From the NCBI GenBank assembly GCA_032718475.1, contig JAUCBJ010007886.1, positions 1 to 64,000 of the forward strand: 64,000 nucleotides of DNA. Reading direction: 5' to 3'. This DNA is from Nemertoderma westbladi (Eukaryota > Animalia > Xenacoelomorpha). The notes under the pieces were generated by a model that did not search any database, was not told the origin of the DNA, and saw only the letters and a list, made by a program, of their open reading frames with translations. This document shows positions 22,218 through 55,456 of this stretch, piece by piece. Both the position numbers and the translations under genes were made by a program. Positions within the stretch are counted from its first letter, which is position 1, and every line of letters starts with the position of its first letter.

Positions 22218-22419
22218 ATTTCCGGACATTCCCTCACCAACCCCCCCCCCCCCCCCCCCCCCCGGACAGTTCCGTTCCGTTCGAGTAGGACACTACTGTT
22301 TTATATTTCGCACGTTCATTTTTCATTTTGAAAGGTAAACGGACCGCTTGTATCCAGACAAGTTGTACAGTATCCAATTTCCCTTTCTGAGCTCAGTAGT
22401 AGTAGTCTGAGCTCAGCTT

Positions 22420-22742
22420 AGTAGTATACATTACTAGCCAACTCGATCAAAGTCACCCGTAGCCCATCATTACCGTCCATTTTTAGTAATCCATCCAATC
22501 AGAAGCCACCATTTCAACCTTTAGCAGTGGTCGTTATTATTTCAACCAATCAGATGTCAGCATTTCATCCGTAACCATGGCAACTTCTCAAGTTCCCGCA
22601 TCTTCCGCTAGAGGCGTTATTAGTCACCCAACGCTAGTACTCCATCCAATCACCAACCTTTATTTTACAGGTGTTCGGGTGTCTACACTTAGCATCAGGT
22701 AACTTCTACTATTTTTCAAATCGCTATTTTTCACCAACCATT
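22420..22742 (+). repeat. Polinton left terminal inverted repeat
   Basis: Reverse complement of 41553-41875; one mismatch noticed (22644). Confidence 0.95.
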
Positions 22743-23296: not shown

Positions 23297-23740
23297 ATGT
23301 CTTCTGATTCCGATATGGTTATGCCAATAGTAAGGCATTCATTTTTTGCAGAAGATGGTGAAGCCTATATTGTTATTGATTATACAATTTACCGTCAGGG
23401 AGATGATAAATATAAAATTGAGTTTTCTGAAAAAGCCAGGAAAGTTTTAAGCTCAATTGATATTGATGCTTCTGATAATAGTATTCATCTCTTAGATTAC
23501 AACCTGAAAGTTGAGCATGAGGGAAAATTAAGCAACATCTTACTATTATCCATGATAGAGGGGTTAATTGTTATTACACAATACAACGAAGCTGGTGAAA
23601 AGTTTGAAATACGGCTAAATCGGCATAGCCCCTACGAAATTATGTCTTTCTTTATTGTAATGATTTCAAAAGAATCCTTTGTCGAACCTGAAGAATCAAC
23701 AGATAATGTTGAATATGTTGATAATATCATTGATTCTTGA
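23297..23740 (+). CDS. Polinton hypothetical acidic protein (147 aa)
   Basis: Clean ATG-started ORF inside the element with a TATA-like TATATATAA ~100 bp upstream. No recognised motif. Confidence 0.6.
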   Translation: MSSDSDMVMPIVRHSFFAEDGEAYIVIDYTIYRQGDDKYKIEFSEKARKVLSSIDIDASDNSIHLLDYNLKVEHEGKLSNILLLSMIEGLIVITQYNEAGEKFEIRLNRHSPYEIMSFFIVMISKESFVEPEESTDNVEYVDNIIDS

Positions 23741-23903: not shown

Positions 23904-24356
23904 ATGGATATTTTAAATGAAAAATGTCCAGTTTGCTATTCTAAGTTATTGCAACAACATCGAGATTATTATAAATGTGAAAATAAACATGCAACTTGCG
24001 TACAATGTATTGTACAATATTCCGAAATGAATAATTATTGTTCTAAAATTTGTCCTATTTGTCGTGCACCCATATCTAAGTTTAATATAAAGTTGGCAAG
24101 TTATCAACCCTATTATTGGAAAGAGCTTCGAAATATAACTTATATTTCTGCGGAAAGTAATGATCCGGGAGATTTATTTACAATATTGGAGAATATTTTT
24201 TATAGAAATGTAGTACGACGCTGTTGCTACTATATTCCTTATTTTTTTAGCAGCGAACATAAAAAAATCATTAGCGCGAAATTCTCGGGAAGTGATTTCC
24301 AATCCGCCGATGTTACCTATCATTATTTCGCGTATAAAGATGCTCACCATGCTTGA
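23904..24356 (+). CDS. Polinton RING-finger (C3HC4-like) protein
   Basis: CPVC-x14-C-x3-H-x2-C-x2-C-x15-CPICR near the N-terminus. First ATG at 23904. Confidence 0.75.
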   Translation: MDILNEKCPVCYSKLLQQHRDYYKCENKHATCVQCIVQYSEMNNYCSKICPICRAPISKFNIKLASYQPYYWKELRNITYISAESNDPGDLFTILENIFYRNVVRRCCYYIPYFFSSEHKKIISAKFSGSDFQSADVTYHYFAYKDAHHA

Positions 24357-24572: not shown

Positions 24573-25250
24573 ATGGCTGACTTTAATTCAGGTCCATATA
24601 ATTTAAACTTTCAAATGGGAACGAGTATGATAATTTCTGGGCCATCTGGTTCTGGAAAGTCAACCTTTGTCAGCAATTTAATTAAACACAAGAATGGTTG
24701 TTTCAACGAAGCCCCCTTGCGAGTATTGTATTGTTACGGGAGCAATCCCCCGACTATTCCCGGTATTACTCACCTTTACAAAGGCTTGCCCGAAAATATA
24801 GATAGTTTAGTGAATAGTCGAGATTTATTAATTATAGATGATTTGTTAACAGAAACTGAGTCCAGTACAGCATTAACTGTATTGTTTACTAAGGTAGCTC
24901 ATCATTCCAATATATTTATTTGTTTTATAACGCAAAACATGTTTTACGGTGGGAAGCATAACCGCACAAGATCAATTAATAGCCATACTTTAGTATTAAT
25001 GAAAAATCCGAGAGACAGTCTATCGGTTTTAAATTTCGCGAAGCAGATGTTACCAGGGCAGACCAAATTTTTAGTTGATTCCTATCAAGATGCGACAATT
25101 CAACCATTTTCACATTTCTTAATTGATTTACGACAGGAAACACCCGAACATTTAAGATTTAGATCGGATATATTTCGTAATCATAATTGTTACATTAAAA
25201 ATTACATTGACTATAAACGTAGCGAAAATAATAATAATAATAATAGATAA
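24573..25250 (+). CDS. DNA packaging ATPase (A32/FtsK-HerA-like)
   Basis: Walker A GPSGSGKS, Walker B LLIIDD, FITQN, R.RS.N and KNPRD motifs typical of Polinton ATPases. Confidence 0.93.
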   Translation: MADFNSGPYNLNFQMGTSMIISGPSGSGKSTFVSNLIKHKNGCFNEAPLRVLYCYGSNPPTIPGITHLYKGLPENIDSLVNSRDLLIIDDLLTETESSTALTVLFTKVAHHSNIFICFITQNMFYGGKHNRTRSINSHTLVLMKNPRDSLSVLNFAKQMLPGQTKFLVDSYQDATIQPFSHFLIDLRQETPEHLRFRSDIFRNHNCYIKNYIDYKRSENNNNNNR

Positions 25251-25291: not shown

Positions 25292-25675
25292 ATGAATAGA
25301 CTTGTGCAGAAATATCGTAACGAACTGGAATTTCTACGCAGCGCTACCCCTCAACAAAGAACTTATTTTATTAACCATACCGCGAGTAACGAATTAATAC
25401 GGCTCATTGTAAATACTGCATTAAATGTTCTAAAAGGTAATGTACAATTAACCCCTCATTCATTTAGAAATATTCGCCGCTATAAGAAGGTATTGAAATC
25501 ACTCAACCGTAAAACAAAAAATATATCAAGTTACAGAAAAAAGTTAAGCAATCAATCTGGAGGCATACTACCGTTTCTAATACCCTTACTCGGCATTGGT
25601 GCGAAACTCGCCGCGAGTGCCGGTGCCGCCGCCGCTGGAGCAGCTATTGCGAAAAAAATTAACCGCGGACGGTAA
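25292..25675 (+). CDS. Conserved small basic Polinton virion protein (PW-like)
   Basis: ALNVLKGNV.LT...K/R-rich...QSGG|ILPFLIPLL. The GG site resembles an adenain cleavage site and is followed by a hydrophobic helix. Confidence 0.75.
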   Translation: MNRLVQKYRNELEFLRSATPQQRTYFINHTASNELIRLIVNTALNVLKGNVQLTPHSFRNIRRYKKVLKSLNRKTKNISSYRKKLSNQSGGILPFLIPLLGIGAKLAASAGAAAAGAAIAKKINRGR

Positions 25676-25899: not shown

Positions 25900-26988
25900 A
25901 TGCCACGCAAGATGAAACCGATTTTAAGCCGAAGCTTAGACAAAAAACTGTTAAGAATTTATTTAGATCCTTCATCCCCTGCGGGTTTTGCAAGTGTTGC
26001 AAAATTAGCAAAAGCTGCAAACATCAAACCAGCACAAGCCCAGAAATGGCTGAGCGGGCAAAAGACATACACCCTTCACGCTCCACGTAGACATCATTAT
26101 CCAACATCTAAAATATTTACGGGAGGTTTAAAAGATATATATATGATAGATCTGGTGGATATGCAGCAATATAAATCGCAAAATAATAATTATAACTATA
26201 TATTAACATGTATTGATGCCTTTAGCAGGCTTGCTTTTGGCTATGGTATGAAAACAAAAAAGGGTATTGAAATTATTAGTATATTGCAAAAAATATTCCA
26301 GAAAGGAAAACCAAACAGAATCGCGACTGATCAAGGGTCTGAGTTTCTAAATAAATCTGTAAGGAAATATTTAGATACGTTAGGTATACAGTATTACGTA
26401 ATGTATTCTGTGAATAAGGCGGCTATTGTCGAGAGATTCAATAGAACATTAAAAACAAAGATGTTCAAAATTTTTACACAACGAGGAAATAATGTTTGGA
26501 TTAAAATTTTACCAAAGCTTATCTCAGCTTATAATAGGTCATATCATAGGACAATAAAAATGACACCTATTGAAGTTAATAAATTTAATGAAACTGAATT
26601 AATGAATAGATTATATGGGAAATATAGACAGATTAATCACAAGAAAATAAAATTTAAAGTTGGAGATACAGTACGATTATCTATCGCTCGTACTGCTTTT
26701 GCTAAAGGCTATCGAGAACAATGGACACGTGAATTATTTATTATTCATCGTGTCAGGCTGGATAGAGTACCTGCTGTAATGTTCGATATTAAGGACAGCG
26801 CTGGAGCTATAATAAAGGGCTCATTTTATTCTCACGAACTCCAAAAGGTCCACCCGAATAGTAATATTTATCTAGCAATTGATAAAAATATTGGCAAACT
26901 TAAAGAACGTGTACGCAATGGGAAGAAAGAATATTTAGTCCGATTCATCGGATCCAAGAAACAGTCGTGGGTACAGCATATTCAATAA
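25900..26988 (+). CDS. Retroviral-like (rve) DDE integrase with short chromo-like C-terminus
   Basis: IDLVDM, CIDAFSR, TDQGSEF, KAAIVERFNRTLK, YN...H.TI.MTP and FKVGD.VR motifs; C-terminal KKEYLVRF.G....WV. Confidence 0.95.
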   Translation: MPRKMKPILSRSLDKKLLRIYLDPSSPAGFASVAKLAKAANIKPAQAQKWLSGQKTYTLHAPRRHHYPTSKIFTGGLKDIYMIDLVDMQQYKSQNNNYNYILTCIDAFSRLAFGYGMKTKKGIEIISILQKIFQKGKPNRIATDQGSEFLNKSVRKYLDTLGIQYYVMYSVNKAAIVERFNRTLKTKMFKIFTQRGNNVWIKILPKLISAYNRSYHRTIKMTPIEVNKFNETELMNRLYGKYRQINHKKIKFKVGDTVRLSIARTAFAKGYREQWTRELFIIHRVRLDRVPAVMFDIKDSAGAIIKGSFYSHELQKVHPNSNIYLAIDKNIGKLKERVRNGKKEYLVRFIGSKKQSWVQHIQ

Positions 26989-27417
26989 GCTTAGGTTTAT
27001 ACTGTATATTAATTCATTTTGGTCGCATATGACCGTAATCAATCAATATTAACTCGAATGATATTACTATATCTATAGTTCATCCGTTTTAAATAAAGCC
27101 AATAAAGCCAGTAAAATATTGATCCCGCGCATATACTGTAGAATATGCGACAATGAACGACAATGAACGTGGTCACAGATGTCTATAATTTAACATTATA
27201 CTGTACTGTATGTACAATGGAGTCAAGTAGAGAGAGAGAGAGCTTAAATAATAATAATAATGGCCACAGATACATATATCACTCTACTTTCAGATAGCTC
27301 ATTAAACACTTACCCCAATAATAATCCTAGCGAGTTTACTGTTGATTTAGCCGAAGAATTATATATTGGTCCAAACGCTAAAATTGGGCTTGCCGAGCTA
27401 CAATACCAAGCAACATA

Positions 27418-28950
27418 CAGTCCCAATCCCAATAAACATTAACTTGGTCATTTTGGCGGCCAAAATTACCAAAATGGCCAAGTAAAAACTGCGGTATTCA
27501 TGAAAGGAACTGCTGAGGCACGTTGGCTTGTCAATCACAGCCAGTGAATACAGGCTGAGTGTAGTAAAACCCAGCATGTTGGCGCTGAGGTAGAGTTCTG
27601 AGGTAGAGTTCTCTCTACCTTTAGGTAGAGAGAAAGGCTCCAATGTAGTAACGGCTGGACTCGCCACTGTAGTAAACATGCCTGTAAGAGTGCAGTGTGA
27701 GGCGCCCGCCCTAACTTATTATTTTCTACATAATTTTTACTAATCTAATAATTAACACACCTTTACCTGTCACTTAGGTTATAAGCAGTGTGCTAGCACT
27801 TGCAGCGTAATAATTAATTATTTACTTTAATTATATTCGATTGGTAATAAAAATAACAAGTCCATATATTTAATTTGTAAAAATTCTTTAAAATATGAGA
27901 AAAGTATTTACATAGATTTTTCTTTATTTAGCAGTTTAATACGCTATAATATAAATGCTCTTATAAATACAGTTAGGGGGGGGGGGGGGGGGACTGGACG
28001 CAATAAAAATTCATCACTCTCCAGGGGAAATTTGACGCAAATAACAGATGATTACTCTCAAAAATAAAACTGTAATGTTCATTTATGTTTAATTTATTGT
28101 TTTGGTTAAAATAACGTGCCACTGTAACCTGCCCCTTTCCCTAAATTGAGAATTTAACATTGAGGCGGGATATTAATTCGCCAAGGCGAGTTTTGCGTCC
28201 AGTCCCCCCCCCCCCCCCCCCCCCTGTCTCGATAAATAATAATTTCATCATCATAAATTCACCCAAATATGCCGACTCTGTTGACTGTTAGCACAGAGCC
28301 AGAGCCTGATATTATAATGTTTTCAGTTACTATCGCCCTCGAATTCAGACCCAGCTACTAGAAATAGGCCGCGCCGCTTAATCTGAATTTCATTAGTATA
28401 CCGAACTCGTTCGAGACTGAGTGTCGCTATTTAATAGCTACCTCTCGCCCTGTCACAGACCCAGCTTCTAACTATAAAACTATAATTAGGACGCCTTCAT
28501 ACAGAACACGTTGCCATTTCATAATGACTCTAAACTGAAGCTACACAAAGGAAAAGGTGAGAAGTGATTATCTAATAATTACACACAAAATCCGATTATT
28601 ATACATACTCCTCCTTTTAACAAAGCCGCATCCAACTAACTCCCTTATTACGTATTAGCCTGTGCTGTATCAATGCCTCAGTGGGTGGTCTCTACTACAA
28701 CTGAAAGGCCCGACTCAGCTCCAGGTAAGTTAACAATCTGTCAATAATAAAAATGAAAGCGAGCCGACATTTAGTCAGAGCAACCAAATGGATGTCCAAG
28801 GAGACGGGCTGTCTGGACTTGACTGAGTCGAGTTAAATCGCTTCGCCAAAACGACCAAGTAGCCCATAGGAATACACTACATTTTTTTGGCGATTTTGGT
28901 CATTTTGGCCGCCAAAACGACCAAGTTAATGTTTATTGGGATTGGGACTG
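27418..28950. mobile_element. Non-autonomous Tc1/mariner-type element (1533 bp)
   Basis: TA duplication (27416-27417, 28951-28952). ~64-bp TIRs starting CAGTCCCAATCCCAATAAAC. No transposase. Confidence 0.92.
27975..28225. mobile_element. Small MITE-like inverted-repeat unit nested in the 27418-28950 element
   Basis: polyG-ACTGGACGCAA ... TTGCGTCCAGT-polyC inverted ends. Confidence 0.65.
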
Positions 28951-29659
28951 TACAGTAATATTACGCTGCAAACTCAAATCTCGCTGTCAATCGGGGTAGA
29001 TGCAAAAGATGCCAAATTATATAGTTTATTTCCTGGTATGCATAGCTCTATTCAAGTGATTATTGATGATATAAATAAACTGTTTAATTCTGAAGCGAAA
29101 TATAGAGATTTCGAATTCATTTTTAATACAAATAATTCTAGAATTAAATTTAAATTTCCTAAAAAGTTGAAAAAAATACAATTAAGTCTACGTGGTGATT
29201 TAATACAAATTCTAGGCTTAAAACCGTTATTGGATCGGAATCATCCGGATATTCCGAATTGGGATATATACAGTACCACTACAGTAGATGAATTAAGCAA
29301 TATAGAACAGCCGATATTAATTTTAAATTATAGCGGACCAAAAATTTCGGAAATTGGCATTTTAGATTTTCCAGCTCCCACGAATATAACACGTAATAAA
29401 GACACTATCTTTATATACACAGATATTATTAAGAGCTCATTTGTTGGTGACGCTTTAGCTCTGCTCTTAAGAACCTGCCCTTTAACGCAATTAAATCGAA
29501 AATATATTAATCACGAATACGAGAGCATTTGCTATTACCCGTTGTTGAATAAAAAACTAAAAACAATCTTAATTACTTTACGTGACGGACAAGGCGAATT
29601 AATTAATTTTAGCGGAGGTCGCACTGTTATAACATTTAAGTTAATACGAGGTGGCAGTG

Positions 29660-30505
29660 ATGGATGAATTCTACGTAAGACTACCAAGTAACTCCTGTCC
29701 AATTGATTTTCCCCGCAATAGCGCTAGTAATTATCAGATCAATTTCCATGGCGCCTTACCTATAAACCCAAACGAAAACTGGGTGGTAGGTATAAAAAGT
29801 ATATTTTACTTAGCAACGTTGCCGTCCATGTATAACAATGTAGAGAATGTTATTTTATTAAAAAAAGGAAAAAAAATTTTTGAGGATACACTTCCATCCG
29901 GTTTGTTCTACAGTATCAATGACATTATAGATTATTTTAACACAGGGGCGTTGAAAGATAAATTACAAATAGTTGAAAATACTCAGCAAAATAGGTTGCA
30001 ATTTATTTTAGGGAAAACTGTGCGAGAGTTATTTATAGGTCAACAATTAGCCTATTATTTTGGAATTACTGAAAATAATCTCGGCGCGAATTTAAATCCA
30101 AATTTTAAAATTATTTTGAAGACGAAAAATAACATAAAGGGTTATTTAATAAAGGTTATCGGAAATGGAGAAAAAGCTTACCAGATGGTATTTTTATGCC
30201 CTCAACCACCCAATTCTATTCCAGAACCTAAGTCGAACATGTACGTGACTACTAATATAATTGAAAATCAATATATTAATGACTTTGGTTTAGCTTTACT
30301 TCGCCGTGTTGCGATACCTGATGACGTGAAATATGGTAGCGTAATAAATAAAGAATTTGTCAAGGATACAATTCATTATATCCCTATAAAAAAATCATAT
30401 AAGATAACATACATTCATATTGAAATAACAGACAAAGAAGGAAAAGATTTGAATTTTGAATACGGGACAACATCTATTACATTACACTTTAAACGAATAA
30501 ATTAA
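29660..30505 (+). CDS. Minor capsid (penton-like) protein 2
   Basis: FYVRLPSNS...FP.N..SNY, W.VG, MYV.TNIIE.Q...LLR, YIP and ITLHFK motifs. The ATG at 29660 overlaps the end of penton 1. Confidence 0.88.
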   Translation: MDEFYVRLPSNSCPIDFPRNSASNYQINFHGALPINPNENWVVGIKSIFYLATLPSMYNNVENVILLKKGKKIFEDTLPSGLFYSINDIIDYFNTGALKDKLQIVENTQQNRLQFILGKTVRELFIGQQLAYYFGITENNLGANLNPNFKIILKTKNNIKGYLIKVIGNGEKAYQMVFLCPQPPNSIPEPKSNMYVTTNIIENQYINDFGLALLRRVAIPDDVKYGSVINKEFVKDTIHYIPIKKSYKITYIHIEITDKEGKDLNFEYGTTSITLHFKRIN

Positions 30506-30506
30506 A

Positions 30507-31070
30507 ATGGATTCTGATTTATTTCAAAGATACAGTAAACCTCAATATGGTGGTTCAGACTCTAATCTTGCTGTTTTTAAAGGTGGTAGAAGTGCCAGAG
30601 GTTCGACACAAGTTCTTGTTTTTCGAGGTGGTTCATATATTGACCCTTACGGTCAACAAATTGGTGCATTTGGTACAAACTTAAAACAACGTCGATTTCA
30701 ACGTTATCCTAGAGGTATGCGGGCAAATCAACACGGAGAAGGTATATTTACAGACGCTTTATCGACATTGAAAAAATTTGGTAAGCCATTAGCTAAAAAA
30801 GTGTTACAAAAAGCTCTACCATTTACCACAAAATTTATGAGACAACACGTAATACCAAAAGGTAAGCGGGTCTTACATCAGCAGGCTAATACGGTTATTA
30901 ATAAAGCATTAAATAAAATGAAACCGTCAACAAGGTCAGTTGTAGAAAAAGTTTATAGAGATTTAAAGCGACCCGCTAGACCAATGTCTATGAACATACA
31001 TCATCGATGTAGTAATAAAAATAGAAAAATAAAAGGCAAACTGAAACACTGCGAAAAAAGTATTTTTTAA
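30507..31070 (+). CDS. Basic virion precursor with G-G/GxG sites and an amphipathic helix (pVI/cupiennin-like by analogy)
   Basis: QYGG, FKGG, FRGG and QHGEG motifs followed by amphipathic IFTDALSTLKKFGKPLAKKVLQKAL. Usual position directly before the major capsid gene. Confidence 0.7.
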   Translation: MDSDLFQRYSKPQYGGSDSNLAVFKGGRSARGSTQVLVFRGGSYIDPYGQQIGAFGTNLKQRRFQRYPRGMRANQHGEGIFTDALSTLKKFGKPLAKKVLQKALPFTTKFMRQHVIPKGKRVLHQQANTVINKALNKMKPSTRSVVEKVYRDLKRPARPMSMNIHHRCSNKNRKIKGKLKHCEKSIF

Positions 31071-31072
31071 TA

Positions 31073-32332
31073 ATGTCAATTATTAAGGAATTAGATTTAT
31101 TTTCTACACAGCCAATACAGACTGAATTTAAAGCAAAGCATTATGAAACAATTTACCCCGTATCTAATCTCAGAAGTGAGTCTAGGGAAGTCACGTTCCT
31201 TGTACCGAGATCCAATGAATTCTATACGAAACTGCAAGATGCGTTATTAATTACAAAATGTACTGTACGATGGGATAGACGACTTGAAAACTCCCATATA
31301 TATATGCTGAATTACCCCGCTGAAACTATGTGGAGTGATATTAAAATAGACCTTAATGAGAAGCAGGTTGAAAATAGCAATAACCATTATTTCTACAAGT
31401 CGTACTTATCCAATTTATTATTTACAACTTACGAGGATAAAAATGGGCTACTGGGTGCGGGTGGCTTTCATCAACCTTTATCTGAGCACGGAAATGAAAT
31501 TGATCCTGGCGCGCATCCTATTGGCGATGCCTTTAGTAAACAAATGCAATTTGTAAGTGGATTGACGATTGATTTTGATACTGAAACTAAAATAATACAA
31601 CCCGGGTATGATTTAAGAATGCATTTTAGAAAAGTATCAAATTCGTTTATTTTTAAAATCACTCCAAACGCAAACGCGGTGACAAATCTTCGGCTAGAAT
31701 TAGATGAAATAAAGATCCTAATCCCTAGAATGGAGGTTAATCCTGTAATAGAAAGCAGTCACCTAAAAGGTTTAGAGAGTTACAATATTGAATATCAATT
31801 CCAAAAAAAGGAGGTGACAACATTTACTATTCCCGCTCAAACCACAAATTACACCCAAACAAACATATTTGATGGTAAAAAACCCAAATTAGTTATTATT
31901 GGCTTCATAACAAATAACGCTTATTCGGGAGAATTAATTAGCAATCCCTTGAAATTTGAACATTTTAACCTTAGACGCGCGGAACTGATTGTAGACGGTC
32001 TTCCAGTAGGTGGTGTAATATACGAGCCTAATTTTACAGATGGAACATATATTTTTGAGTATACTCAATTAATGAAGAACATTAATACATATATTAACGG
32101 TTATGGGGGTAATAATATAGACCATGAAACCTACTTAGGTAATTGTCCCCTCCTATCCTGGGACCTAACCGCCGACGGCTATGTTAGAGATCCGCAACCG
32201 TCGATATATACTAACGGCCAATTAAAATTAAGATTTGCTGAACCGTTGGTTGAAACCATAAATGTAATCGTTTTTAATATTTATGATCAATCATTAAGTT
32301 TAAATAGCAGGAAAGGAATACATATCGATTAA
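31073..32332 (+). CDS. Major capsid protein (double jelly-roll, Polinton PY/hexon-like)
   Basis: ELDLF..QP.QT...Y..IYP, Y.YKSY...LL, P...IIGF..N.AY.G....NP..F.HF and L.LRFA.PL motifs; 419 aa. Confidence 0.9.
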   Translation: MSIIKELDLFSTQPIQTEFKAKHYETIYPVSNLRSESREVTFLVPRSNEFYTKLQDALLITKCTVRWDRRLENSHIYMLNYPAETMWSDIKIDLNEKQVENSNNHYFYKSYLSNLLFTTYEDKNGLLGAGGFHQPLSEHGNEIDPGAHPIGDAFSKQMQFVSGLTIDFDTETKIIQPGYDLRMHFRKVSNSFIFKITPNANAVTNLRLELDEIKILIPRMEVNPVIESSHLKGLESYNIEYQFQKKEVTTFTIPAQTTNYTQTNIFDGKKPKLVIIGFITNNAYSGELISNPLKFEHFNLRRAELIVDGLPVGGVIYEPNFTDGTYIFEYTQLMKNINTYINGYGGNNIDHETYLGNCPLLSWDLTADGYVRDPQPSIYTNGQLKLRFAEPLVETINVIVFNIYDQSLSLNSRKGIHID

Positions 32333-32334: not shown

Positions 32335-32787
32335 ATGTTATCTACAGAGGACCATGATATGTTTCCAGTGGGTGGTCACTATTTGGGAGCGTTTCCAGCT
32401 AACAAATTACCTAAATTAGATAATAATAAGCGGAAAGATTATGGGTTGATAGTAAATACCGATAAAGAGCATCTTCCTGGGATTCATTGGATCGCAATAT
32501 ATATACGAGATAATGAGGCCGAAGTATTTGACTCGTTTGGACCAAAATATCCAAACAGATGCATCGAAAAATGGCTTGAGAAAAATTCCGCAAGGTGGCG
32601 TACTACTCGCAATCAATTTCAAGACCCTAGGCGGACCACATGCGGTCTGTACTGTCTTTATTATTTGGTAAATCGTATTCACACAATCTATCCAATGAGA
32701 GTGTTTACAAATAATGTGGAAATAAATGAAATAATATTATATAAATGGCTTGTTAATTATTATAAAATAAACCAACAAGCGTTGTAA
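32335..32787 (+). CDS. Adenain-like cysteine maturation protease
   Basis: IVNTD....PG.HW (His), FDSFG (Asp), Q......TCG.YC (Gln/Cys). Confidence 0.93.
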   Translation: MLSTEDHDMFPVGGHYLGAFPANKLPKLDNNKRKDYGLIVNTDKEHLPGIHWIAIYIRDNEAEVFDSFGPKYPNRCIEKWLEKNSARWRTTRNQFQDPRRTTCGLYCLYYLVNRIHTIYPMRVFTNNVEINEIILYKWLVNYYKINQQAL

Positions 32788-32818: not shown

Positions 32819-33388
32819 ATGGATAATATTATTTTTGTTGATTTTCAATATTATAAGATAGACAATAAAGAGTATCCGGTAGTATTTAAAGAATTGCTAT
32901 ATTCGATTCTAATTACACCAAAACTAATGTAAAGACGTTTTTAATTAAAGGCCCACCTAATATTAAGTTATCAGCATTAGATGCAGCCCACGTAAACAAT
33001 TTACGGGATATGACTTCTCACTTGCCCTGGGACTACGGGGACATTTCGCAAGATGACTTTAAAAAATATATGAAGAGACATTTAAAATATAAAAAAAATA
33101 TTCATGTATTTGGGTTGATGAAGCAGGCAATATTAGTTTCCCAACTCGATGTTCTCGCGTCAAATTCGGTGGAGAAATTGGGAATATATAAGCAATATCA
33201 CGATTATTTAACCCCTTGTCGGGCATAAATGTGCATTCCACTTAAACATAAGGGATAACTGTCTGCGATACTGCTCAGCAAAACGCGTTGGGGGGTATGA
33301 GATGCTACACTTTTTCATGAGAAAGCGTTTAACTGCGACTGATGATGATAAACAGAAAGAAATAACTGATGTGGAAGATGTACTGTAG
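32819..33388 (+). pseudogene. Frameshifted Polinton accessory gene with a DEDD/DnaQ-like N-terminal pattern
   Basis: MDNIIFVDFQ...VFKE [frameshift ~32890] IAIFD...FLIKGP...HLPWDYGDI...IHVFGLMK [frameshift ~33200] KCAFH...YCSAKRV...stop at 33388. Confidence 0.6.
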
Positions 33389-34576: not shown

Positions 34577-34724
34577 TCACGCAGTCAGCCTCGCGGCACG
34601 CAGTCAGCCTCGCGGCACGCAGTCAGCATCGCGGCACGCAGTCAGCCTCGCGGCATGCAGTCAGCCTCGTGGTCGGTCATGCAGTCAGCCAGCCAGCCAC
34701 GCGGCTTGGCATGCAGTCAGCCCG
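34577..34724. repeat. GC-rich 19-bp tandem repeat (~5-7 units)
   Basis: Unit CACGCAGTCAGCCTCGCGG. Confidence 0.9.
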
Positions 34725-34811: not shown

Positions 34812-35357
34812 CTAATCACCAACACCTAAAGTCACAACACCAAACATTAATAAATAATTAACAAGTTTACTAAATATAGGGTAATAAATGTGAAATTTGC
34901 TAGGTGAACACATTAAAGTACATTTACCAGTATGAAAGCAGCAAATGACTACGGTATTATTTATTCTTATTTTGCAATTATTAAAAATTTCAGGTTCATA
35001 TATAACTTGAAGTTGCACATTATCAAAGACAACATAAAACCCGGTATTGTTTATCAATAACCTATAGACAACAGACTTAATACTAAAAATATAAGTACAT
35101 AAATTAACAGATTTTAAAATCAAATTAATACTAGTTTTATCAAATATATGCTTTTTTACTTTTTGGAAATTATACTTACTGCCTAATAATGTAATACGAC
35201 CATTTTTAAATATTAATAATGTGGCACCAAATATCTTATATATAAACTGATTTGGTTTGAGTATGTGTTTACCAGATAATTGATTTTTTAATTCTTTAAA
35301 ATTAATCGCTGACACTTGCTGGCAACTTACATTCTTATTAACTATCTGATAGTTCAT
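34812..35357 (-). CDS. TATA-box-binding protein (TBP)-like protein encoded by the Polinton (181 aa)
   Basis: Two TBP repeats: IVN..VS / ATLLIFKNGRITLLGSK and VN..Y / YEPEIF....RI...VICCFHTGKCTL (TBP: TALIFSSGKMVCTGAK; YEPELFPGLIYRM; LLIFVSGKVVL). Confidence 0.8.
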   Translation of the reverse strand: MNYQIVNKNVSCQQVSAINFKELKNQLSGKHILKPNQFIYKIFGATLLIFKNGRITLLGSKYNFQKVKKHIFDKTSINLILKSVNLCTYIFSIKSVVYRLLINNTGFYVVFDNVQLQVIYEPEIFNNCKIRINNTVVICCFHTGKCTLMCSPSKFHIYYPIFSKLVNYLLMFGVVTLGVGD

Positions 35358-38300
35358 TGTTTGGTTCCCGATAAATAGGTATATTGTTTTTTTTTACGGG
35401 TTTTTCAACCTTTGTTTGATAGTGACCCCAGGGAAGCGAATGATTTTTATTAACCCAATAAAGTTTATCGTCAAATGCGCTGAGAGCAAACTTATCTCGT
35501 GCTACAGTATACACTTTGTGTAATTGACTCTGAAATTGGTGCGTTTCCTTGGAAATTTCTAAGTTATCCCTATATGCTCTTAAATAATCTTCGTGGCAAA
35601 TATTTTTATCCACGACAGCTCTTGTTATTCCTTTCGCCCGTCGTATATTTGTTTCATTGAATTCTAAAATTGAATATAACTTTGGTCTTAAAAATACTGC
35701 TTGTTTAATTTCACGTGAGGCTAGTTCATCTTTACAGTAATAGAGCCTGGATTTATTTTTATCGCTGTAGAGAGGGTGATCCTTGGGGTAATTGGATGTA
35801 TCTAAAATATTATTTTTAATTAAGGCTTTTAAGAAATTACTCTGCGATGTATTATAGTAACAACCTATTAAAGAGTCCGTATCTGATGCTACAATTTCAA
35901 TTCGGCAGTTTAATTCTTTCTCAATAGGTAGCAATTTATCGTAATACAGCTGATACATATCCAATTTAGCCAAGTCCAAGACAGTACTACCTACATAGAC
36001 CGGCTTATCGAGAGTTACAGAGTCTTTTACTAATAAATGTCCCGATAAGGAATCGTTATAAATCATGAAATTTTCGTGATTTATACGTTTGACCAATAGG
36101 TTGCATTTCTCTTTACTATTAGCGATACGAAAGTTGCAACGGTCCCTTATCTTCTCTATCGTTTTTCCAAATAACGAATTCTTTAGAAGCTTCGCAACAG
36201 CTGTATCAATGTAACTTTTTGCTACTCGCCTTTGATTAATATTAAAATCTATATAGGGTTTAAATACAAAGTCTTGATGGAAAGAATACAATTTATGGAG
36301 CTTAGTAACAATTAAACCTTGTTTTATATAAAATTTTAACAGTTTTAAATTTACATGATAGAATTCCTTATCGAATTGTGTCAACATAAGTTTTGGTGCA
36401 CACATCTTATAATTGCTATTAGTACCTCTTTGTTTACAAACATGATTATATTGTTCCCTCATATATGGTGAAAGCATTGTCTCATTTATACTTAAATGTT
36501 CTGGAGCTAAGGGTAGTTCTAATGTACGATCATGAATATCTTTGGGATATTTCAAATCGCAAATTAAGAAAAACCCAATATCACCTTCAGTATCAAGATT
36601 TGTCAAATAGTTTATTAGTTCTTCTGGAGCAGCATTCTCTAAATATGTAACGTTGACTTGTTCAAACCCTGAAACAGGTAGCTTTTTACTTAAATTACCA
36701 GAATACAAGGAATTAAAATCTATATTGAAAATATGACACTCTTCCTTGCTTGGATCATAATTATCAGTATCTGGTATATTTGATTCTATGTAATGCTTTC
36801 GACAGAATGAAACCCCTCCTCTAATAGATGCTTCAAAATCTCTATATGTTTGGTAATCTTTTATTAATGCTAACTTACATTTATTGTATTTCAGGGCGCA
36901 ATCATAAGTGAAAGCTGCGATACTGCAATAATAAACTACTTCTAATTCGTAGTTTTGTCTACATACTCTCCTAAAGTTCTCAAATATAACAGCGAGGAGA
37001 CAAACATCGAGTTTTAAGTATGCTAAAAGATAATCCTTGAGATTTGTACACTCAAACTGACTCCATGATGCGTTGGCAAAACTATATTCCTCGGGAGTAC
37101 AGGTATTTTGTGTTAATTTACTATAAAATTTGTCTATTGATGGTAATTTCGAATCATTGAATTTATTTAAATCTGTCAGATACTTGTAGGGAAATATACC
37201 TTTTCGTTTAATTGTTGCATTATTTAAATTTGGATAAAAATATTTCATTTGCTGTTCAGTAATTGGTAGAACTGATGTTATATCCTCGCTGTCTATATCC
37301 TTTGTTGAACAATCAACTAAAGTACTTAGGGAAAAGGATAAAAATTGATATGTGTCTAAGACACGTAGCTCGATTTTTGTTTTTTGTTCTTTCACCGGTA
37401 TATGCATACTCAGTGAAATATACCTTTCAGAATTTTTAGGGATTACCTTTATATCCCAATCGGAATATTTGTTATTGCTAAACCCAACTTGCAAAAGAAA
37501 ATGCAAATCGTAGAGATTGCAGTTGTGTGCAGCGAGTATATACATGTGTCGTTTCAATGATAAAGAGCGGTTACACGCGTTACAAGCGGCTGCTATATAG
37601 TTACCAGTAATATGTGAGTGATGTTTATTTTTCTCAGACTTATCCTTAAATAAAACATTGCAATAAAAGCAAGTTTTAGCTTTCCAAAAACTTAACTTAT
37701 CTACATCGTTAAGTATAATCTTCTCTCGCGTATGGGTTTCTGCCCACTTATATAATTGGGTGATGTCATTATATACAGAGTCTAAAAAGTCTTGAATACA
37801 GTTGTTGTCGATTGTTTTTGTAAAGGTCTTCAAATAAAATTTTGGTGGATTGATTAATTCACTACTAGGAACAATTAAATAACTTACAGCGCATGGAATA
37901 TGATTCTGAATAAATTTACTGTTGGTGGCTGGCTCCAAAATAGATTCTATGTCAAAATATATTACAAACAATGCTGGTAATGTTCTGTCTAAATTTCTAA
38001 AGCTAATGTGAGTTCTTTTTTCAGACGGTAGCTTCTCAACTTGACTTTTTCCTCGATAACAAGCAAGACAGTGACGTTCTAGAACATCCTTGCTGTAGAA
38101 ATGAGACAAACACCGTTCACAAAATTTCCTACATCTAATATGCTTACCTGTTGTATTCAACAAACGATTCAAGTTAGTTATGCAAATATAATGTGATTGT
38201 TTACTCGTATTCTTATTTTTTACAAGTAATATATTCAATAACTCTTTATCTGGAGTGATTTTACTAAATGGAGCCTGTCTTAATATAGATACTCGATTGT

Positions 38301-39345
38301 TATCGTAGAGTAATAAATTAATTATATATGCTGAATTCTGTTTTTCAAAAAGTTTAATTGCAAGCAGCCATTCTGTTGGATAATCTTTGTTCCCGTTGTC
38401 AAAAATAAAATGACTCATATAATTTTTGTACGATGAAGTACGGTTTTTGTTGTTTTTCACTTTGCTACTAAATTTTGTGGCTATAATTGCCCATTTGAAA
38501 CAGTCATTATCAGCCGTTTGTATATTTATAACACATTTTTTAACTGATAGAGTCTTAGGTAACTCCATATAACCTTTATATTCCAGTGACCTACACTTGG
38601 ATTCAGCTACTTTAATTTCCACTCTTAATAAAGATTTAACGCGCCACCCTGAGCCACGAGTGTTAAACATGGCTATTTTTTGCATTAATTGTTCTAGTAC
38701 ATACTCAAACCATGTGTCAAAACTTTCATGTGAATCTATGGTATTAACTGCACCACCTGAAGAACTAAAATAGAAAGCTTCTTCTTGATCTCCCTCTGAA
38801 AAATGTGATCGATACATGAGTATATTCACACCTAGCCAGGGTCTAAGTACATTCATTTCGCTAAGTTTTCCTAATAATAACGTTTTGATGTGTGGCAGAA
38901 TTTTTAGTATCAATGAATGAATATCAGGAAAATCTTCATCATTCGGAAGATTGTAAACATAGATTTCTAAACGGTTATCGTGTGCAGCTCGTTCGATGCT
39001 AAAAATTGATGGACCTTGACCAGATTTCAGTCTTTTTCTAGATGCGACAGTATTGTTTTGGTTCGCTCGTGGTCTAACATGATAATAACGTTGGTGACAG
39101 TCGTGACGTAAATAATTATCATATAAATACTCTTTATTACAAGTAGGACAAGTTTTTTCATACACGTAAAACTTCATTTCTTTACATCCCGTAGTTGATT
39201 CATGTCGTTTGCATATTTCTTCTGTAGGTGTAAAAACATGACACTTAAAACAAGAATAACCTTCAAAATGTGACCTTAGGTGGCGTAAATAATTTCGTTT
39301 AGAAATTTGAAGAGGACAAAATGGACATTTCAATTGTTTATCCAT
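35338..39345 (-). CDS. Protein-primed family B DNA polymerase (1335 aa)
   Basis: ExoI YFDIES, ExoII HN...YD, ExoIII Y...DV; Pol motifs DFNSLY, KLLKNSLFGK, DTDS, KAK-like RAKGI. N-terminal C2H2 fingers, GSGW motif, vOTU-like DNDCF...HY and an EndoVII-like insert. Confidence 0.97.
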   Translation of the reverse strand: MDKQLKCPFCPLQISKRNYLRHLRSHFEGYSCFKCHVFTPTEEICKRHESTTGCKEMKFYVYEKTCPTCNKEYLYDNYLRHDCHQRYYHVRPRANQNNTVASRKRLKSGQGPSIFSIERAAHDNRLEIYVYNLPNDEDFPDIHSLILKILPHIKTLLLGKLSEMNVLRPWLGVNILMYRSHFSEGDQEEAFYFSSSGGAVNTIDSHESFDTWFEYVLEQLMQKIAMFNTRGSGWRVKSLLRVEIKVAESKCRSLEYKGYMELPKTLSVKKCVINIQTADNDCFKWAIIATKFSSKVKNNKNRTSSYKNYMSHFIFDNGNKDYPTEWLLAIKLFEKQNSAYIINLLLYDNNRVSILRQAPFSKITPDKELLNILLVKNKNTSKQSHYICITNLNRLLNTTGKHIRCRKFCERCLSHFYSKDVLERHCLACYRGKSQVEKLPSEKRTHISFRNLDRTLPALFVIYFDIESILEPATNSKFIQNHIPCAVSYLIVPSSELINPPKFYLKTFTKTIDNNCIQDFLDSVYNDITQLYKWAETHTREKIILNDVDKLSFWKAKTCFYCNVLFKDKSEKNKHHSHITGNYIAAACNACNRSLSLKRHMYILAAHNCNLYDLHFLLQVGFSNNKYSDWDIKVIPKNSERYISLSMHIPVKEQKTKIELRVLDTYQFLSFSLSTLVDCSTKDIDSEDITSVLPITEQQMKYFYPNLNNATIKRKGIFPYKYLTDLNKFNDSKLPSIDKFYSKLTQNTCTPEEYSFANASWSQFECTNLKDYLLAYLKLDVCLLAVIFENFRRVCRQNYELEVVYYCSIAAFTYDCALKYNKCKLALIKDYQTYRDFEASIRGGVSFCRKHYIESNIPDTDNYDPSKEECHIFNIDFNSLYSGNLSKKLPVSGFEQVNVTYLENAAPEELINYLTNLDTEGDIGFFLICDLKYPKDIHDRTLELPLAPEHLSINETMLSPYMREQYNHVCKQRGTNSNYKMCAPKLMLTQFDKEFYHVNLKLLKFYIKQGLIVTKLHKLYSFHQDFVFKPYIDFNINQRRVAKSYIDTAVAKLLKNSLFGKTIEKIRDRCNFRIANSKEKCNLLVKRINHENFMIYNDSLSGHLLVKDSVTLDKPVYVGSTVLDLAKLDMYQLYYDKLLPIEKELNCRIEIVASDTDSLIGCYYNTSQSNFLKALIKNNILDTSNYPKDHPLYSDKNKSRLYYCKDELASREIKQAVFLRPKLYSILEFNETNIRRAKGITRAVVDKNICHEDYLRAYRDNLEISKETHQFQSQLHKVYTVARDKFALSAFDDKLYWVNKNHSLPWGHYQTKVEKPVKKNNIPIYREPNNELSDS

Positions 39346-39893: not shown

Positions 39894-40937
39894 TCAATCT
39901 GATACTGTTTTTATATGTTCCTTATTGTAATCTGCTACCTCTTCACTTGCTTTTGTAACTTTTATTTTCTTTGTAGGTATAGAATCATTGTTGGGAATGG
40001 AAGATGTTTGAGATGTAGATCTGCGCTTTCTATCACTCGATGTCTCTTCGATGTATGTCTTTGGATTAAATGTAGATGAAACTACTTCTGGAAATGACTT
40101 ATTAACCTTAAACTTCCAAGTTGGTTGATATAGAATCGCGAAACCGTCTGCTATATCAGTTGATGAACCCTTTAACATCATATCATAGAGAAACTCTATA
40201 TGAGGTATGTCTTTATCGTAATGTAACTGTAAATATTTGCTTTCCTTGTCTGTAATAATTACTTTTTTTTCTTGTACATTTATTTTTACCTTAAGTCGGT
40301 CAGATAAAGCTTTATCGCTCGTATCTAGCTCTGAAAAGACACCTTCGTTACTAATTTCATAATTCCATTCATACCACAATGAATTTACTTCCGATGCTGT
40401 TAAGTTAAACCCATTATAATACCTAAGACCAATAGCATCAGAATATCTAGCTGAAATCTCCCATAGTCCCATATAAGTCGTTCCTTTATATTTGCTTACA
40501 AAACCAACAAAAGATGGGTTGGTTAAATTAACAACAGAACACTGATTTATTATTTCGAGTGGTGGTGATAACAATTCTAATATTTCTGACTTACTCTGAA
40601 GCAATAAATTAATGAGTGATTTGTTTAGAATTTGACATTTGCCTTGCTTCTGAATATATACGTTTTCAGTAATAACACAGGTGGAAATATTTAACTTTCC
40701 TCTTGTAAATTCTATATTAGGATAAATATTACCTCTTGAAACTGGTGATTCCTTTTGTCGGTTGATTAATATTTCTAAGACGTCTAGAAGGTAGAGTGTA
40801 TCCTGGTAAGAGAAGCACGTTGTTACATTGCTATCGCTTGAGAGTAATATAAAATACTTGCCATAAACAATACTACAGGTATATTTATTACATGTAAATT
40901 TCCAAGTATTGCTTGAAGTTTTTTTAAATAAATCCAT
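39894..40937 (-). CDS. Polinton protein with a PC4-like ssDNA-binding/coactivator motif (347 aa)
   Basis: FVSKYKGTTYMGLWE...GFNLTASEVNSL resembles PC4 YVSVRDFKGKVLIDIRE...GISLNPEQWSQL. Basic NLS-like RKRR and PTKKIK near the C-terminus. Confidence 0.6.
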   Translation of the reverse strand: MDLFKKTSSNTWKFTCNKYTCSIVYGKYFILLSSDSNVTTCFSYQDTLYLLDVLEILINRQKESPVSRGNIYPNIEFTRGKLNISTCVITENVYIQKQGKCQILNKSLINLLLQSKSEILELLSPPLEIINQCSVVNLTNPSFVGFVSKYKGTTYMGLWEISARYSDAIGLRYYNGFNLTASEVNSLWYEWNYEISNEGVFSELDTSDKALSDRLKVKINVQEKKVIITDKESKYLQLHYDKDIPHIEFLYDMMLKGSSTDIADGFAILYQPTWKFKVNKSFPEVVSSTFNPKTYIEETSSDRKRRSTSQTSSIPNNDSIPTKKIKVTKASEEVADYNKEHIKTVSD

Positions 40938-41552: not shown

Positions 41553-41875
41553 AATGGTTGGTGAAAAATAGCGATTTGAAAAATAGTAGAAGTTACCTGA
41601 TGCTAAGTGTAGACACCCGAACACCTGTAAAATAAAGGTTGGTGATTGGACGGAGTACTAGCGTTGGGTGACTAATAACGCCTCTAGCGGAAGATGCGGG
41701 AACTTGAGAAGTTGCCATGGTTACGGATGAAATGCTGACATCTGATTGGTTGAAATAATAACGACCACTGCTAAAGGTTGAAATGGTGGCTTCTGATTGG
41801 ATGGATTACTAAAAATGGACGGTAATGATGGGCTACGGGTGACTTTGATCGAGTTGGCTAGTAATGTATACTACT
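41553..41875 (-). repeat. Polinton right terminal inverted repeat
   Basis: Reverse complement of 22420-22742. Its inner 41 bp are repeated again at 41487-41527. Confidence 0.95.
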
Positions 41876-42457
41876 CATATTAATATGAAAATAAAGTATC
41901 TGCAAAGAAAATAACCCAATACTATATAATTTGACCTTATTAAAAAATTTTAACTTTTGCACACTTATTTGTACAAATGCACTTTAGCAGATCGTAATGG
42001 TGGCTCTTATTTAACAAACTTATGTTTATCCTCTACCGATCTACGATGGTGTATGATCAAGTGTCAGTCGCTAAAAGTGTCAAAAATCCAATTTAATAAA
42101 TCTGGATTTGCGATTTTGGACCATATTCATGGACATTTTAAGTCACTTTATAGACATAAAAAGAAAAACAAATGTTACGATTATAGTTAGCAATCATTCC
42201 AAACTACATTTTAATCTAAAAAATAACATTCTACGATGAATAGAACTGGAAATAATAGTGTTTGAAATATCGAAAAAATGTTCACTATTTAAGTGCATTA
42301 TGCACTAAGTGCACATGCGTCTTTTCCCAAGTTGTATCCTATTTCATACACTACGATCTATTCTCTACCCAATGAAAAAAGTTTCAGATTAAATGGCCCT
42401 GTAGAACCGAAGTTATTGATGTTTAAAAATAGTCACTCGAAAATTTCAAATTCTCTT

Positions 42458-46526: not shown

Positions 46527-47235
46527 CTCCCCCCCATGCTATCTTCCCGGTAAGAAGATAGCATCAACCAAAAAGTGCGCTACAATCCCGCTGGATCCCG
46601 ATCTAGTATCGGGTGTGGGGTGGAATTCTTTTCTCTCGGAGCCGGCTTTCCAGGCCGCTCCCTATTGGTATGATAACGCTACCCTGTATGCCTGGCGTCC
46701 CATGTCGGGCCGATCGCGCTCACCTCTCACGCGACTTTTGTTTCCCCAACACTTTCGCCCTGTCTCCTCTCCACTCTCACCCTAACTCTCTCATACACTC
46801 GGACCTCCTCGTCCCACACTCAGCCTCTTATTCTCCCCCCCCCCACATTAGAATTGCGTCCGCACTCTCTCCGCACTTTCGCTCTATTACTCCGTCCCTC
46901 AACCCCACTTTGACTACCTCATTCCTCCTGACGAATCTCCCCCCCTCTTGTGCCGTCGCACTCAAGAAGTGTGAAATTGTCTGGTGTCTCGTCCATAGTG
47001 CCATAGTCAGTTTACCCCCCAGTCCCAGTACCTAATTGAGAAAGGTTGTATGACTATAGTACTTACTCCGAACGTATATTTGTAGATTACTAATTACTAT
47101 GTACGTACATACGAATTGCACTTATATGATTATTTGCATTAATTAGATTTATACTTAATAGTTCGTACGTCTCACGCGGCGCCTTCCAGGCGTACCACGT
47201 CCAAGTCCCAGTCTCTCTCCCTCGGCTCTGGGAAC

Positions 47236-48894
47236 CTATCTGTTCCTCTGGGGATAGTTCCCCCTGGCGTCCTCTTCCCTGGGTCGTTTCTTCGTTACCA
47301 CCGTTCCTCTGGGATCCGCTTTCTGCTTTCGGACCTTCGCCGCCACCTCCCTGCTGATCCCGGTTGTCGGCTCCTTGGGCGCTGGTGTTATTAGTGCCCG
47401 ATATCGCTTCGCTGGTGGCCCCTCAGAGTGGCCCGGTTGTCTCCCTCTGGTGGCGTCCCATAGGATCATCTTCATTGCTTGTGGTACGTGCTCCGCCAAG
47501 AAATCCCTAAACTCCCTTCGGTTCTGTGGCGTCCACCTGTCCAAATATCTTTGTGTGTTCATCACTCCGGCGTACGACGCCGCCGTTGCTACCTCTTGGT
47601 AGGTAAACGGTAGCCTCCGCTTTATGATTTCCATGTGAGTCTCCTGATTGATAAGGAAGAAACCCCACTTGAACTCCTGGGCCTTCATGCGCTGGCGCGT
47701 CATGGCCCCGACGTCGGCCCACTCCTCCAATCTTGCGAACTTCTCCTCGTCGTCCATCCAGTCGCACTGGCGTCCGTAGTGTCCCCGAAAGTGGCACTTT
47801 GGACATCGGTTATGCAACCGTGGACACGCCCCCATCCTGTGGCTTGGCTCTCGGCAGTAGAGACAAAAGGTTCCCTTCTGGAACCGGTACAAGCAGCTCC
47901 TTTCCTGGTGGGTCTGTCTCCCACAGTAGTCGCAGCCGAGTACCAATGTCTCCCGTCCCACCTCGTCTTTCGTCCCAAGCGATCTCCGCGGTCTGTGGAG
48001 TCGCTGGTAGGCGAATTTCTCTACGTTGGTCTCCCTGTCTACGTCGATCTCTCCGCCCCTCTCGGGCATCGTCTCCCCGAATACTATCCGTGGTGCCGTC
48101 CCCGGTTGCTCGCCCAACCTGATGGTGCTCCCCGCGAAATCCATCGTCGGCTCCTCGTGCACCCAGGTCCGCTTGCCGGATCTGTTCCAGAAGGCCCTCG
48201 CCCCACTGGCCATCACCACCCTCCCGCCAACCCAGTCCGTGTCCGAGTGGCCTATCCTCTTGATGGGCGGCATCTCTCCGAACTCGTCGTCGTCCTCCTC
48301 CTCTGGCAGTGACTCCAACCCCGGTATCCCGATGGATCCACTATGTCCCTTCCCGCCTTGGCTCCCGCCCGTAGCTCTCCATCCCTCTAACTCCCTTAAC
48401 TTCCTTGGCGGCTGGTCGCCTTCGGCGCCCGCTGGTATGGGCATCGCTTGCAACCCCGACGTCGACTGTCTCAGCGATCCCACCGTCCATCCCAGTTCTC
48501 GCCCTAGAGACTCCCCCGAACTCCCTGACGAAGTCCAATGAAGCTCGTCTAAGCCTGCCTGTTCCCCGAAGCCGTAACTCTGTGTCCTGGCCTCCTCTTC
48601 CCTCTCCTCTGCTTCTATCCTCTCCCGTCTGGCGACTTCTTCCAGTCGCTTTGCTTCTCGTCTATCCGTTTCTAGCTGCTCCCATCTCTGATACGGCATA
48701 TCTGTCTCCCCGTCTACCAGATGTCGGCTGTTGTAGTACACTGACTCGCCCTTCAGCCCCGGGTGGTCTACCAGACCGTCGAAGGCCGTTTTAAAGGCTC
48801 TCCTGTAGCTTAGGGGTGATCCCGATAACAGAAATGCCCCTGGTTCCCTCTCGATGACCACGGTCATAAATAAGTTAAGCAAACTTATCATCAT
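47236..48894 (-). CDS. Accessory ORF of BEL element 1 (zinc-knuckle protein); 3' part of a longer disrupted gene starting ~49778
   Basis: Three CX2CX4HX4C knuckles, E/R-rich coil, acidic linker and basic tail. In frame with 48916-49425 across a single TGA. Confidence 0.75.
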   Translation of the reverse strand: MMISLLNLFMTVVIEREPGAFLLSGSPLSYRRAFKTAFDGLVDHPGLKGESVYYNSRHLVDGETDMPYQRWEQLETDRREAKRLEEVARRERIEAEEREEEARTQSYGFGEQAGLDELHWTSSGSSGESLGRELGWTVGSLRQSTSGLQAMPIPAGAEGDQPPRKLRELEGWRATGGSQGGKGHSGSIGIPGLESLPEEEDDDEFGEMPPIKRIGHSDTDWVGGRVVMASGARAFWNRSGKRTWVHEEPTMDFAGSTIRLGEQPGTAPRIVFGETMPERGGEIDVDRETNVEKFAYQRLHRPRRSLGTKDEVGRETLVLGCDYCGRQTHQERSCLYRFQKGTFCLYCREPSHRMGACPRLHNRCPKCHFRGHYGRQCDWMDDEEKFARLEEWADVGAMTRQRMKAQEFKWGFFLINQETHMEIIKRRLPFTYQEVATAASYAGVMNTQRYLDRWTPQNRREFRDFLAEHVPQAMKMILWDATRGRQPGHSEGPPAKRYRALITPAPKEPTTGISREVAAKVRKQKADPRGTVVTKKRPREEDARGNYPQRNR

Positions 48895-55378: not shown

Positions 55379-55456
55379 CCGCTCCCAGAAAATGGGATTC
55401 AAGTCTATAAATATACAAAAATCACAGTTTCTAATATACGTAAATACTCTAAACAG

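Follow-up and report, generated by a model that had tools for sequence, protein, structure and literature searches.

A divergent TATA-binding protein predicted in a Polinton of Nemertoderma westbladi and its possible part in the transcription of virion genes

A Polinton with the expected set of genes

The window, by which we mean the whole stretch of 64,000 nucleotides analyzed here (positions 1 to 64,000 of the forward strand of contig JAUCBJ010007886.1 of Nemertoderma westbladi), carries an element that has the set expected of a Polinton/Maverick (adintovirus): terminal inverted repeats (TIRs), a pPolB gene, an rve-type integrase, a packaging ATPase, a maturation protease and a major capsid protein. 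The genes of this element are AT-rich (25–40% GC), and the following features were recognized:

22420..22742: left TIR, 323 nt, starting with AGTAGT
23297..23740, plus strand: 147-aa ORF without family match, preceded by a predicted TATA+Inr promoter
23904..24356, plus strand: RING-finger ORF, 150 aa (weak Pfam RING matches, below the cut-off)
24573..25250, plus strand: A32-like packaging ATPase (Pox_A32, E=0.001, below the cut-off)
25292..25675, plus strand: small basic core-like protein (weak Adeno_PX match, E=0.013)
25900..26988, plus strand: retrovirus-type integrase (rve, E=1e-10)
27260..29667, plus strand: putative first minor-capsid gene, interrupted in this copy
29660..30505, plus strand: putative second minor-capsid gene, 281 aa
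30507..31070, plus strand: basic 187-aa ORF ahead of the capsid gene
31073..32332, plus strand: major capsid protein, 419 aa (homologues named capsid or major capsid protein)
32335..32787, plus strand: adenain-type maturation protease (Peptidase_C5, E=8.5e-6)
32819..33228, plus strand: non-virion ORF 3' of the protease gene, frameshifted in this copy, preceded by a predicted TATA+Inr promoter
34812..35357, minus strand: divergent two-lobed TATA-binding protein (TBP), 181 aa (Pfam, model, alignment)
35338..39345, minus strand: pPolB, 1335 aa (homology to 139 loci, motifs)
39894..40937, minus strand: 347-aa ORF without family match, upstream of pPolB, preceded by a predicted TATA+Inr promoter
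41553..41875: right TIR, 100% complementary to the left one

Some of these names are partly or wholly our own assumptions. The 1335-aa pPolB ORF had no match in Pfam, and its label rests, besides the homology to 139 loci, on what we take to be B-family polymerase motifs. Likewise, we presume that the ORF at 27260..29667 is the first minor-capsid gene because of an N-terminal motif, that the ORF at 29660..30505 is the second, and that the basic ORF at 30507..31070 is PZ-like because of its position.

A TBP core encoded next to pPolB

The reading frame at 34812–35357 is open from ATG to TAG on the minus strand and overlaps the 3' end of pPolB on the same strand by 20 nt; it is enclosed by the two 323-nt TIRs. 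In size (181 aa), intactness, overlap and location it is thus as an earlier note on this DNA had described it. The translation contains the motifs (LLIFKNGRITLLGSK, YEPEIF, FHTGKC, LKPNQF) to which that note had pointed when it assigned the protein to the TBPs with both repeats recognizable. This assignment was borne out by profile and structure searches alike. The Pfam family PF00352 matched the protein in two stretches with 36.1 bits (E=5.7e-9; curated cut-off, 22.9 bits), and a profile built without the window protein gave it 46.6 bits, as compared with 11.3 bits for the best of 500 shuffled sequences and 0.7 bits for the reversed sequence. All 30 Atlas feature matches of the ORF were PF00352 clusters. 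An alignment-guided model, steered by an alignment of TBP-like relatives, has the shape of a two-lobed saddle (pLDDT 81, pTM 0.72). When this model was used in a Foldseek search, TBP chains ranked first (E from 3e-9 to 6e-7; best E=3.1e-9), and in a wide structural search TBP was found with Z 13.5 (rmsd 3.6, 167 residues aligned), the first protein other than TBP reaching only Z 6.4. The predicted fold spans residues 1–175; the protein is a bare TBP core with no N-terminal extension.

The model made from the single sequence reached a pLDDT of only 41.9, and the fold search started from it was uninformative. Direct searches with the ORF yielded no match to TBP in the PDB sequences, no loci in the viral_contigs collection and a single, unrelated match in plasmids. 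Collectively, the profile matches and the alignment-guided model confirm that the predicted product of this ORF is a real two-lobed protein of the TBP fold.

TBP genes mark a lineage of Polintons

The earlier note had stated that TBP is not among the canonical core genes of Polintons. This agrees with our scan with a single pPolB motif, through which 139 mostly partial pPolB-bearing loci were fetched: one of them carried a TBP gene, and this was one of the 18 loci that were at least 12 kb long. In this locus (L101), a 169-aa ORF matches the window TBP (BLASTP E=3e-8) and the Pfam TBP family (E=2e-15). The window and L101 are the only two of 44 rows in a pPolB tree to have a TBP, and they group together as a single clade (SH-aLRT 100). 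Since the Polinton with the closest pPolB thus likewise bears a TBP gene, this gene, judged from the polymerase sequences, marks a Polinton lineage. Further coding sequence of L101 (11546–13891) specifies a KilA-N protein and a phospholipase A2-like domain of the parvovirus type.

A profile made from the window and L101 sequences retrieved 104 metagenomic proteins, that of L101 included, among 426 candidates. These share a KP-x-Q motif where the first stirrup would be, NxN at the positions of N69 and V71, a Ser at that of N159 and an acidic TFIIB loop, and they are presumably all Polinton proteins. The window TBP is an outlier with respect to this family, to whose members it is 21–30% identical over long matches. 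Scanning viral_contigs with pPolB, with the capsid protein and with the TBP-family alignment gave nothing, and PF00352 was found in none of six records searched. Another contig (L166) encodes, at 2917–3351, a near-canonical TBP with an intact NP-x-RF loop; the neighboring genes are for a core-like protein and an ATPase of the A32 type. It may represent a less-derived stage of the Polinton TBPs. It is filed in a bacterial metagenome-assembled genome and is likely misbinned.

The TBP gene of the window directly follows pPolB and overlaps it, and the same linkage is present in a more diverged sister contig (joint 35305–35411, runs X4 and X5). This arrangement would suit a factor of replication or integration that, for the protein-primed polymerase, bends the origin within the terminal repeats, or that directs the integrase to its targets. 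We consider such a role very unlikely. The search for TBP genes beside pPolB in other Polintons, which the earlier note had put forward, did turn up the gene of L101, but the adjacency is not conserved: in L101 the TBP gene lies about 5.5 kb from pPolB and immediately before the ATPase gene, and the TBP gene of L166 is found close to the ATPase cluster. Moreover, a factor of this kind would have no reason to keep the TFIIB-binding glutamates described below.

Purifying selection among sister copies

To compare sister copies of the TBP gene, we used contigs from three DNA sequencing runs of the same organism and from one run of another organism. In run X1, 372 contigs aligned with the TBP ORF, a number that reflects contig depth and not copy number, and no indel was seen within the ORF. 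We listed 40 differences among the copies (a further 25 lie outside this tally); 27 of these fall on third codon positions, among them a third-position change in codon 121 (E121) in some copies, and 23 are synonymous, where 19% would be expected. None of the listed differences creates a stop codon. Because of this synonymous excess and the lack of indels and stops, we conclude that the TBP gene is under purifying selection among sister copies; the ORF is conserved in them, a point on which the earlier note had made its reading depend.

These data bear on the notion that the gene is a captured fragment of a host TBP gene that is decaying and has no function. In a TBP phylogeny, the branch leading to the window protein is extremely long, at 2.46 changes per column, and is without a supported position (support 82/29), as might be seen with a decaying gene. 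The same can be said of the outcome of phmmer searches with the window ORF in two large databases, where none of 41 candidates and none of 1.84 billion representatives matched. The purifying selection and the absence of indels largely refute this notion, and both the full two-lobed fold and the homologues in related elements speak against it as well; we regard it as scarcely credible.

DNA face, first stirrup and TFIIB loop

We aligned the window protein and the L101 protein with 88 of the 104 relatives (16 short ones were excluded) and transferred the yeast numbering via relative L012, whose alignment to yeast TBP is gap-free. The earlier note had read LKPNQF as an altered form of the NPKRF motif of the first repeat, and this did not hold. 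The KP of LKPNQF aligns on the NP, and the KRF part is deleted; the first stirrup, including the intercalating Phe99, is missing from the window protein and from all 88 aligned relatives. The Phe of LKPNQF (F38) does not correspond to that of NPKRF, its column being occupied by Leu in 69 of the 88 relatives with Phe absent from its eight commonest letters. The motif has been deleted throughout the family rather than substituted.

Of the four intercalating Phe residues of a canonical TBP, only F99 is lost. F116, F190 and F207 are kept as F50, F125 and F141 in the window protein, and they are retained in 87, 88 and 86 of the 88 relatives, respectively (N69 in 79). In terms of its sequence, the window protein is a member of the TBP family, albeit not a canonical four-Phe TBP. 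Much of the DNA face has been rewired. When judged against the 16 DNA-contact residues given in Table 1 of PMC12529657, the window TBP keeps six (N69, L114, F116, V161, F190, F207) and is altered at V71, V122, T124, N159, P191, L205, V213 and T215. Among the changes fixed across the relatives are V71N (76/88), V122R (87/88), N159S (82/88) and L205N (83/88). The window protein has the V71N and N159S changes of its family, but carries T, N, C and C at positions 122, 191, 205 and 216, where the family has R122, P191, N205 and G216. The suggestion of the earlier note that the DNA specificity has changed fits the altered DNA-binding surface; the basis on which it was made, the NPKRF substitution, was wrong. 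The changes fixed across the family (V122R, L205N) look like a new specificity and not like decay.

The two glutamates of the TFIIB loop (E186 and E188), which according to PMC7221094 contact TFIIB and Brf1/2, correspond to E121 and E123 of the window protein; both are kept there and in 87 of the 88 relatives. These glutamates are about 40% conserved across the remaining viral TBPs, the majority of which are paired with a TFIIB of their own (PMC7221094). A Pfam search for TFIIB-family proteins among the 15 ORFs of the element found none, and the 147-aa and 347-aa ORFs have no family match.

Among five positions that we take to form the basic patch of helix 2 (the TFIIA/Brf1/TAF1/Mot1 patch), the window TBP keeps one, in a region that aligns weakly and where the helix has other lysines. 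The patch has thus apparently been lost, with the reservation that the alignment is uncertain there. Viral TBPs generally lose this N-lobe signature, as reported in PMC7221094. As for the suggestion of the earlier note that the element redirects or decoys host Pol II or Pol III initiation, a redirection of Pol II by the window TBP is plausible, and a Pol III role is less likely because of the apparent loss of the helix-2 patch.

The TFIIB glutamates persist in 87 of 88 relatives and the DNA face has drifted to 6 of 16 contacts, a combination that one would expect of a decoy, a protein that binds host TFIIB or AT-rich host promoters without productive initiation and thereby shuts off host genes, weakening antiviral or anti-transposon transcription. 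The failure to find a cognate box above controls (see below) would fit as well. However, the three intercalating Phe residues and N69 are kept family-wide, and V122R and L205N have become fixed; furthermore, an element of very high copy number would probably gain little from host shut-off. A function as a decoy therefore appears distinctly unlikely to us.

Two candidate classes of promoters

We compared 14 upstream regions, eight belonging to virion, packaging and integrase genes and six to non-virion genes. A TATA[AT]A box positioned 24–34 nt before an Inr-like TCAKY precedes four of the six non-virion genes (spacing 30–33) and none of the eight genes of the virion set (Fisher p=0.015). Four hits were reached in 1 of 5000 random sets and in none of 2000 shuffles; this test was devised after the data had been seen, and most of the upstream regions of the virion genes are coding DNA. 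Since TATA+Inr stands before non-virion genes and not before virion genes, the comparison points to two promoter classes, a host-type class on the non-virion genes that is absent from the virion genes. When the box is widened to GATAAA, the TBP gene itself gains a candidate promoter with a predicted start near 35441:

35441..35469, minus strand: possible TBP core promoter within the 3' end of pPolB (GATAAAC 28 nt before an Inr-like TCATTC, found post hoc)

No box specific to the virion genes emerged. Of 40 random sets, 8 yielded a word as good as the best 8-mer shared by the eight upstream regions of the virion set, and a position-anchored scan found none above controls. Over all 14 genes, the best word was WAATCATW (6/14; 1 of 40 controls was as good), within which TCATT is Inr-like. 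In L101 the best box was MYATAAAC (5 of 10 genes; about 4 of 40 controls equaled it), a borderline result. YATAAACR words are repeated on the coding strand of L101 (9 of 10 on the plus strand). The word TATRWACR, present before virion and non-virion genes alike (6/14), was rejected as hand-picked and post hoc.

The missing late-specific box raises the question of whether the TBP is a general booster of low specificity, which would replace host TBP on the AT-rich DNA of the element, free of host inhibitors and with no switch from early to late genes. The occurrence of TATRWACR before both sets of genes and the base composition of the element genes are in keeping with such a function, and the changes at P191 and the loss of F99 could relax the specificity of the protein. 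Against this stands the finding that host-type TATA+Inr promoters are already present on the non-virion genes and not on the virion genes. We consider a general booster unlikely.

A possible switch from early to late genes

Our preferred reading is that an early TBP directs TFIIB and Pol II of the host to the late (capsid and packaging) genes of the element, a proposal that we judge to be evenly balanced between right and wrong. The TBP would be made early, from a host-type promoter. It would then bind a variant AT-rich site via its three remaining Phe residues and a re-tuned surface, with polar changes at V71, V122, N159, P191 and L205 providing an altered or relaxed TATA specificity, and would bring RNA polymerase II, along with host TFIIB, to the genes for capsid and packaging. 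Without the N-lobe stirrup and the apparently missing basic patch, it would escape control of the TFIIA/Mot1/Brf1 type. DNA binding, altered specificity, TFIIB binding, escape from regulators, early timing and action on late genes are thus all properties that we infer. The fold, the selection, the pPolB clade, the kept glutamates, the lack of a TFIIB match and the promoter split support this late switch, for which the herpesvirus TBP mimics with a polar DNA interface set a precedent (PMC12529657); the lack of a late box above controls, the retention of only 6 of 16 DNA contacts and the divergence of the window protein from its own family at P191, V122, L205 and G216 count against it. Alternatively, a single long transcript, spliced or polycistronic, could serve the tightly packed virion genes.

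A more far-reaching idea is that of a whole lineage of animal Polintons with a one-protein switch from early to late genes, in which a bare, stirrup-less TBP, expressed from a host-type promoter, works with host TFIIB and Pol II on a private box of the capsid and packaging genes, and in which DNA face and box are paired within each sub-lineage. We advance this idea tentatively and lean somewhat toward doubting it. If true, no smaller system for viral late transcription would be known, and the switch would be the control point for the formation of Polinton particles. Maverick particles had not been observed, according to the abstract of PMC8097293, and little is understood of how Polintons/Mavericks activate their capsid genes. 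A TBP present throughout a lineage, with its host-TFIIB contact kept and its DNA face rewired, would offer a testable handle on this switch, and the Polinton TBPs would provide natural TBP variants of altered specificity.

Comparison with other TBPs and TBP mimics

Cellular TBPs (PF00352; yeast 1ytb/1rm1, human 1cdw, archaeal 1mp9) have the same two-lobed saddle as that predicted for the window TBP and share with it the equivalents of N69, L114, F116, V161, F190, F207, E186 and E188. They differ from the window TBP in sequence (about 19% identity), in their first stirrup with F99, which it lacks, and in the helix-2 patch that it has apparently lost.

The TBP mimics of beta- and gammaherpesviruses (KSHV ORF24, EBV BcRF1, HCMV UL87) drive late genes, which have a TATT late box; like the Polinton TBP, they are virus-encoded proteins of the TBP fold with conserved Phe residues and a more polar DNA face, according to PMC12529657. 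They act for a nuclear virus with host Pol II and are our candidate for a system that works like the Polinton TBP (PMC12529657). However, KSHV ORF24 is a multidomain protein of 752 aa with F99 in place and with direct binding to Pol II, whereas the Polinton TBP is a bare core, and ORF24 has been called incompatible with direct TFIIB binding, whereas the Polinton TBP keeps the TFIIB glutamates (PMC12529657). The extra Pol II-binding and C-terminal domains and the six-protein viral complex of the herpesvirus mimics have no counterpart in the bare 181-aa core. By analogy, the Polinton TBP may work like the late TBP mimics of herpesviruses without being one of them.

Many dsDNA viruses are known to encode a TBP (PMC7221094), and viral TBPs were also among our BFVD matches. 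The TBP-like proteins of NCLDVs have likewise lost the N-lobe regulatory signature (PMC7221094). They mostly occur with a TFIIB of their own and conserve its contacts to about 40%, in contrast to the 87 of 88 relatives of the window protein that keep the glutamates and to the element without a TFIIB match. The Polinton TBP thus appears to depart from the published pattern of viral TBPs that work with their own TFIIB (PMC7221094).

In a literature search confined for the most part to papers outside subscription journals, we found no analyzed Polinton TBP. Passages of PMC12220804, PMC10675990, 10.1101/2025.01.22.633263 and 10.64898/2026.06.19.733378 deal with other elements or contain nothing on a Polinton TBP. 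The novelty is nonetheless lower than the earlier note implied: a TBP label already appears in the legend to Fig. 5 of Starrett et al. (2021; PMC8502044), for MELD viruses, elements related to Polintons with an adintovirus-like PolB. It is a figure label only, with no analysis in the available text, and it concerns elements mostly from non-animal datasets; one supplement of PMC8502044 gave no match to TBP.

Further features of the element and its flanks

Residues of about 135–185 of the 347-aa ORF resemble by eye a PC4-type ssDNA-binding fold; follow-up searches gave no support to this reading. Just downstream of the TBP gene, a GC-rich 19-nt tandem repeat (34578–34669, 4.8 copies) varies in copy number among sister copies. 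Several CCAATC boxes in the left TIR (22420–22742) may be sites for host factors at the origin of replication.

A 6-bp target duplication was not found at the ends of the element, where the flanks CAGCTT and CATATT differ at two of six positions, a result that bears on the insertion history of this copy and not on its gene set. The TIRs are nevertheless 100% identical, and flanks of this kind possibly result from recombination between copies or from an assembly join. The left flank (22386–22426) consists of a 20-nt tandem repeat in which AGTAGTAG occurs, as it does at the element end, and the right flank (41876–41887) is a perfect palindrome (CATATTAATATG).

Within the putative first minor-capsid gene lies a TIR-bounded insertion (about 27416–28952) with 71-nt arms that are 93% complementary and TA at both ends, which we take to be Tc1/mariner-like. 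A smaller inverted repeat with poly-G/poly-C arms (27961–28235) is nested in it, and a related arm is present outside the element at 22031–22097. Further out in the window, the element is flanked on one side by at least two Pao/BEL retrotransposons (46670–63972), whose presence would point to an animal host, and on the other by an intronless ORF for a short-chain dehydrogenase (16398–17471).
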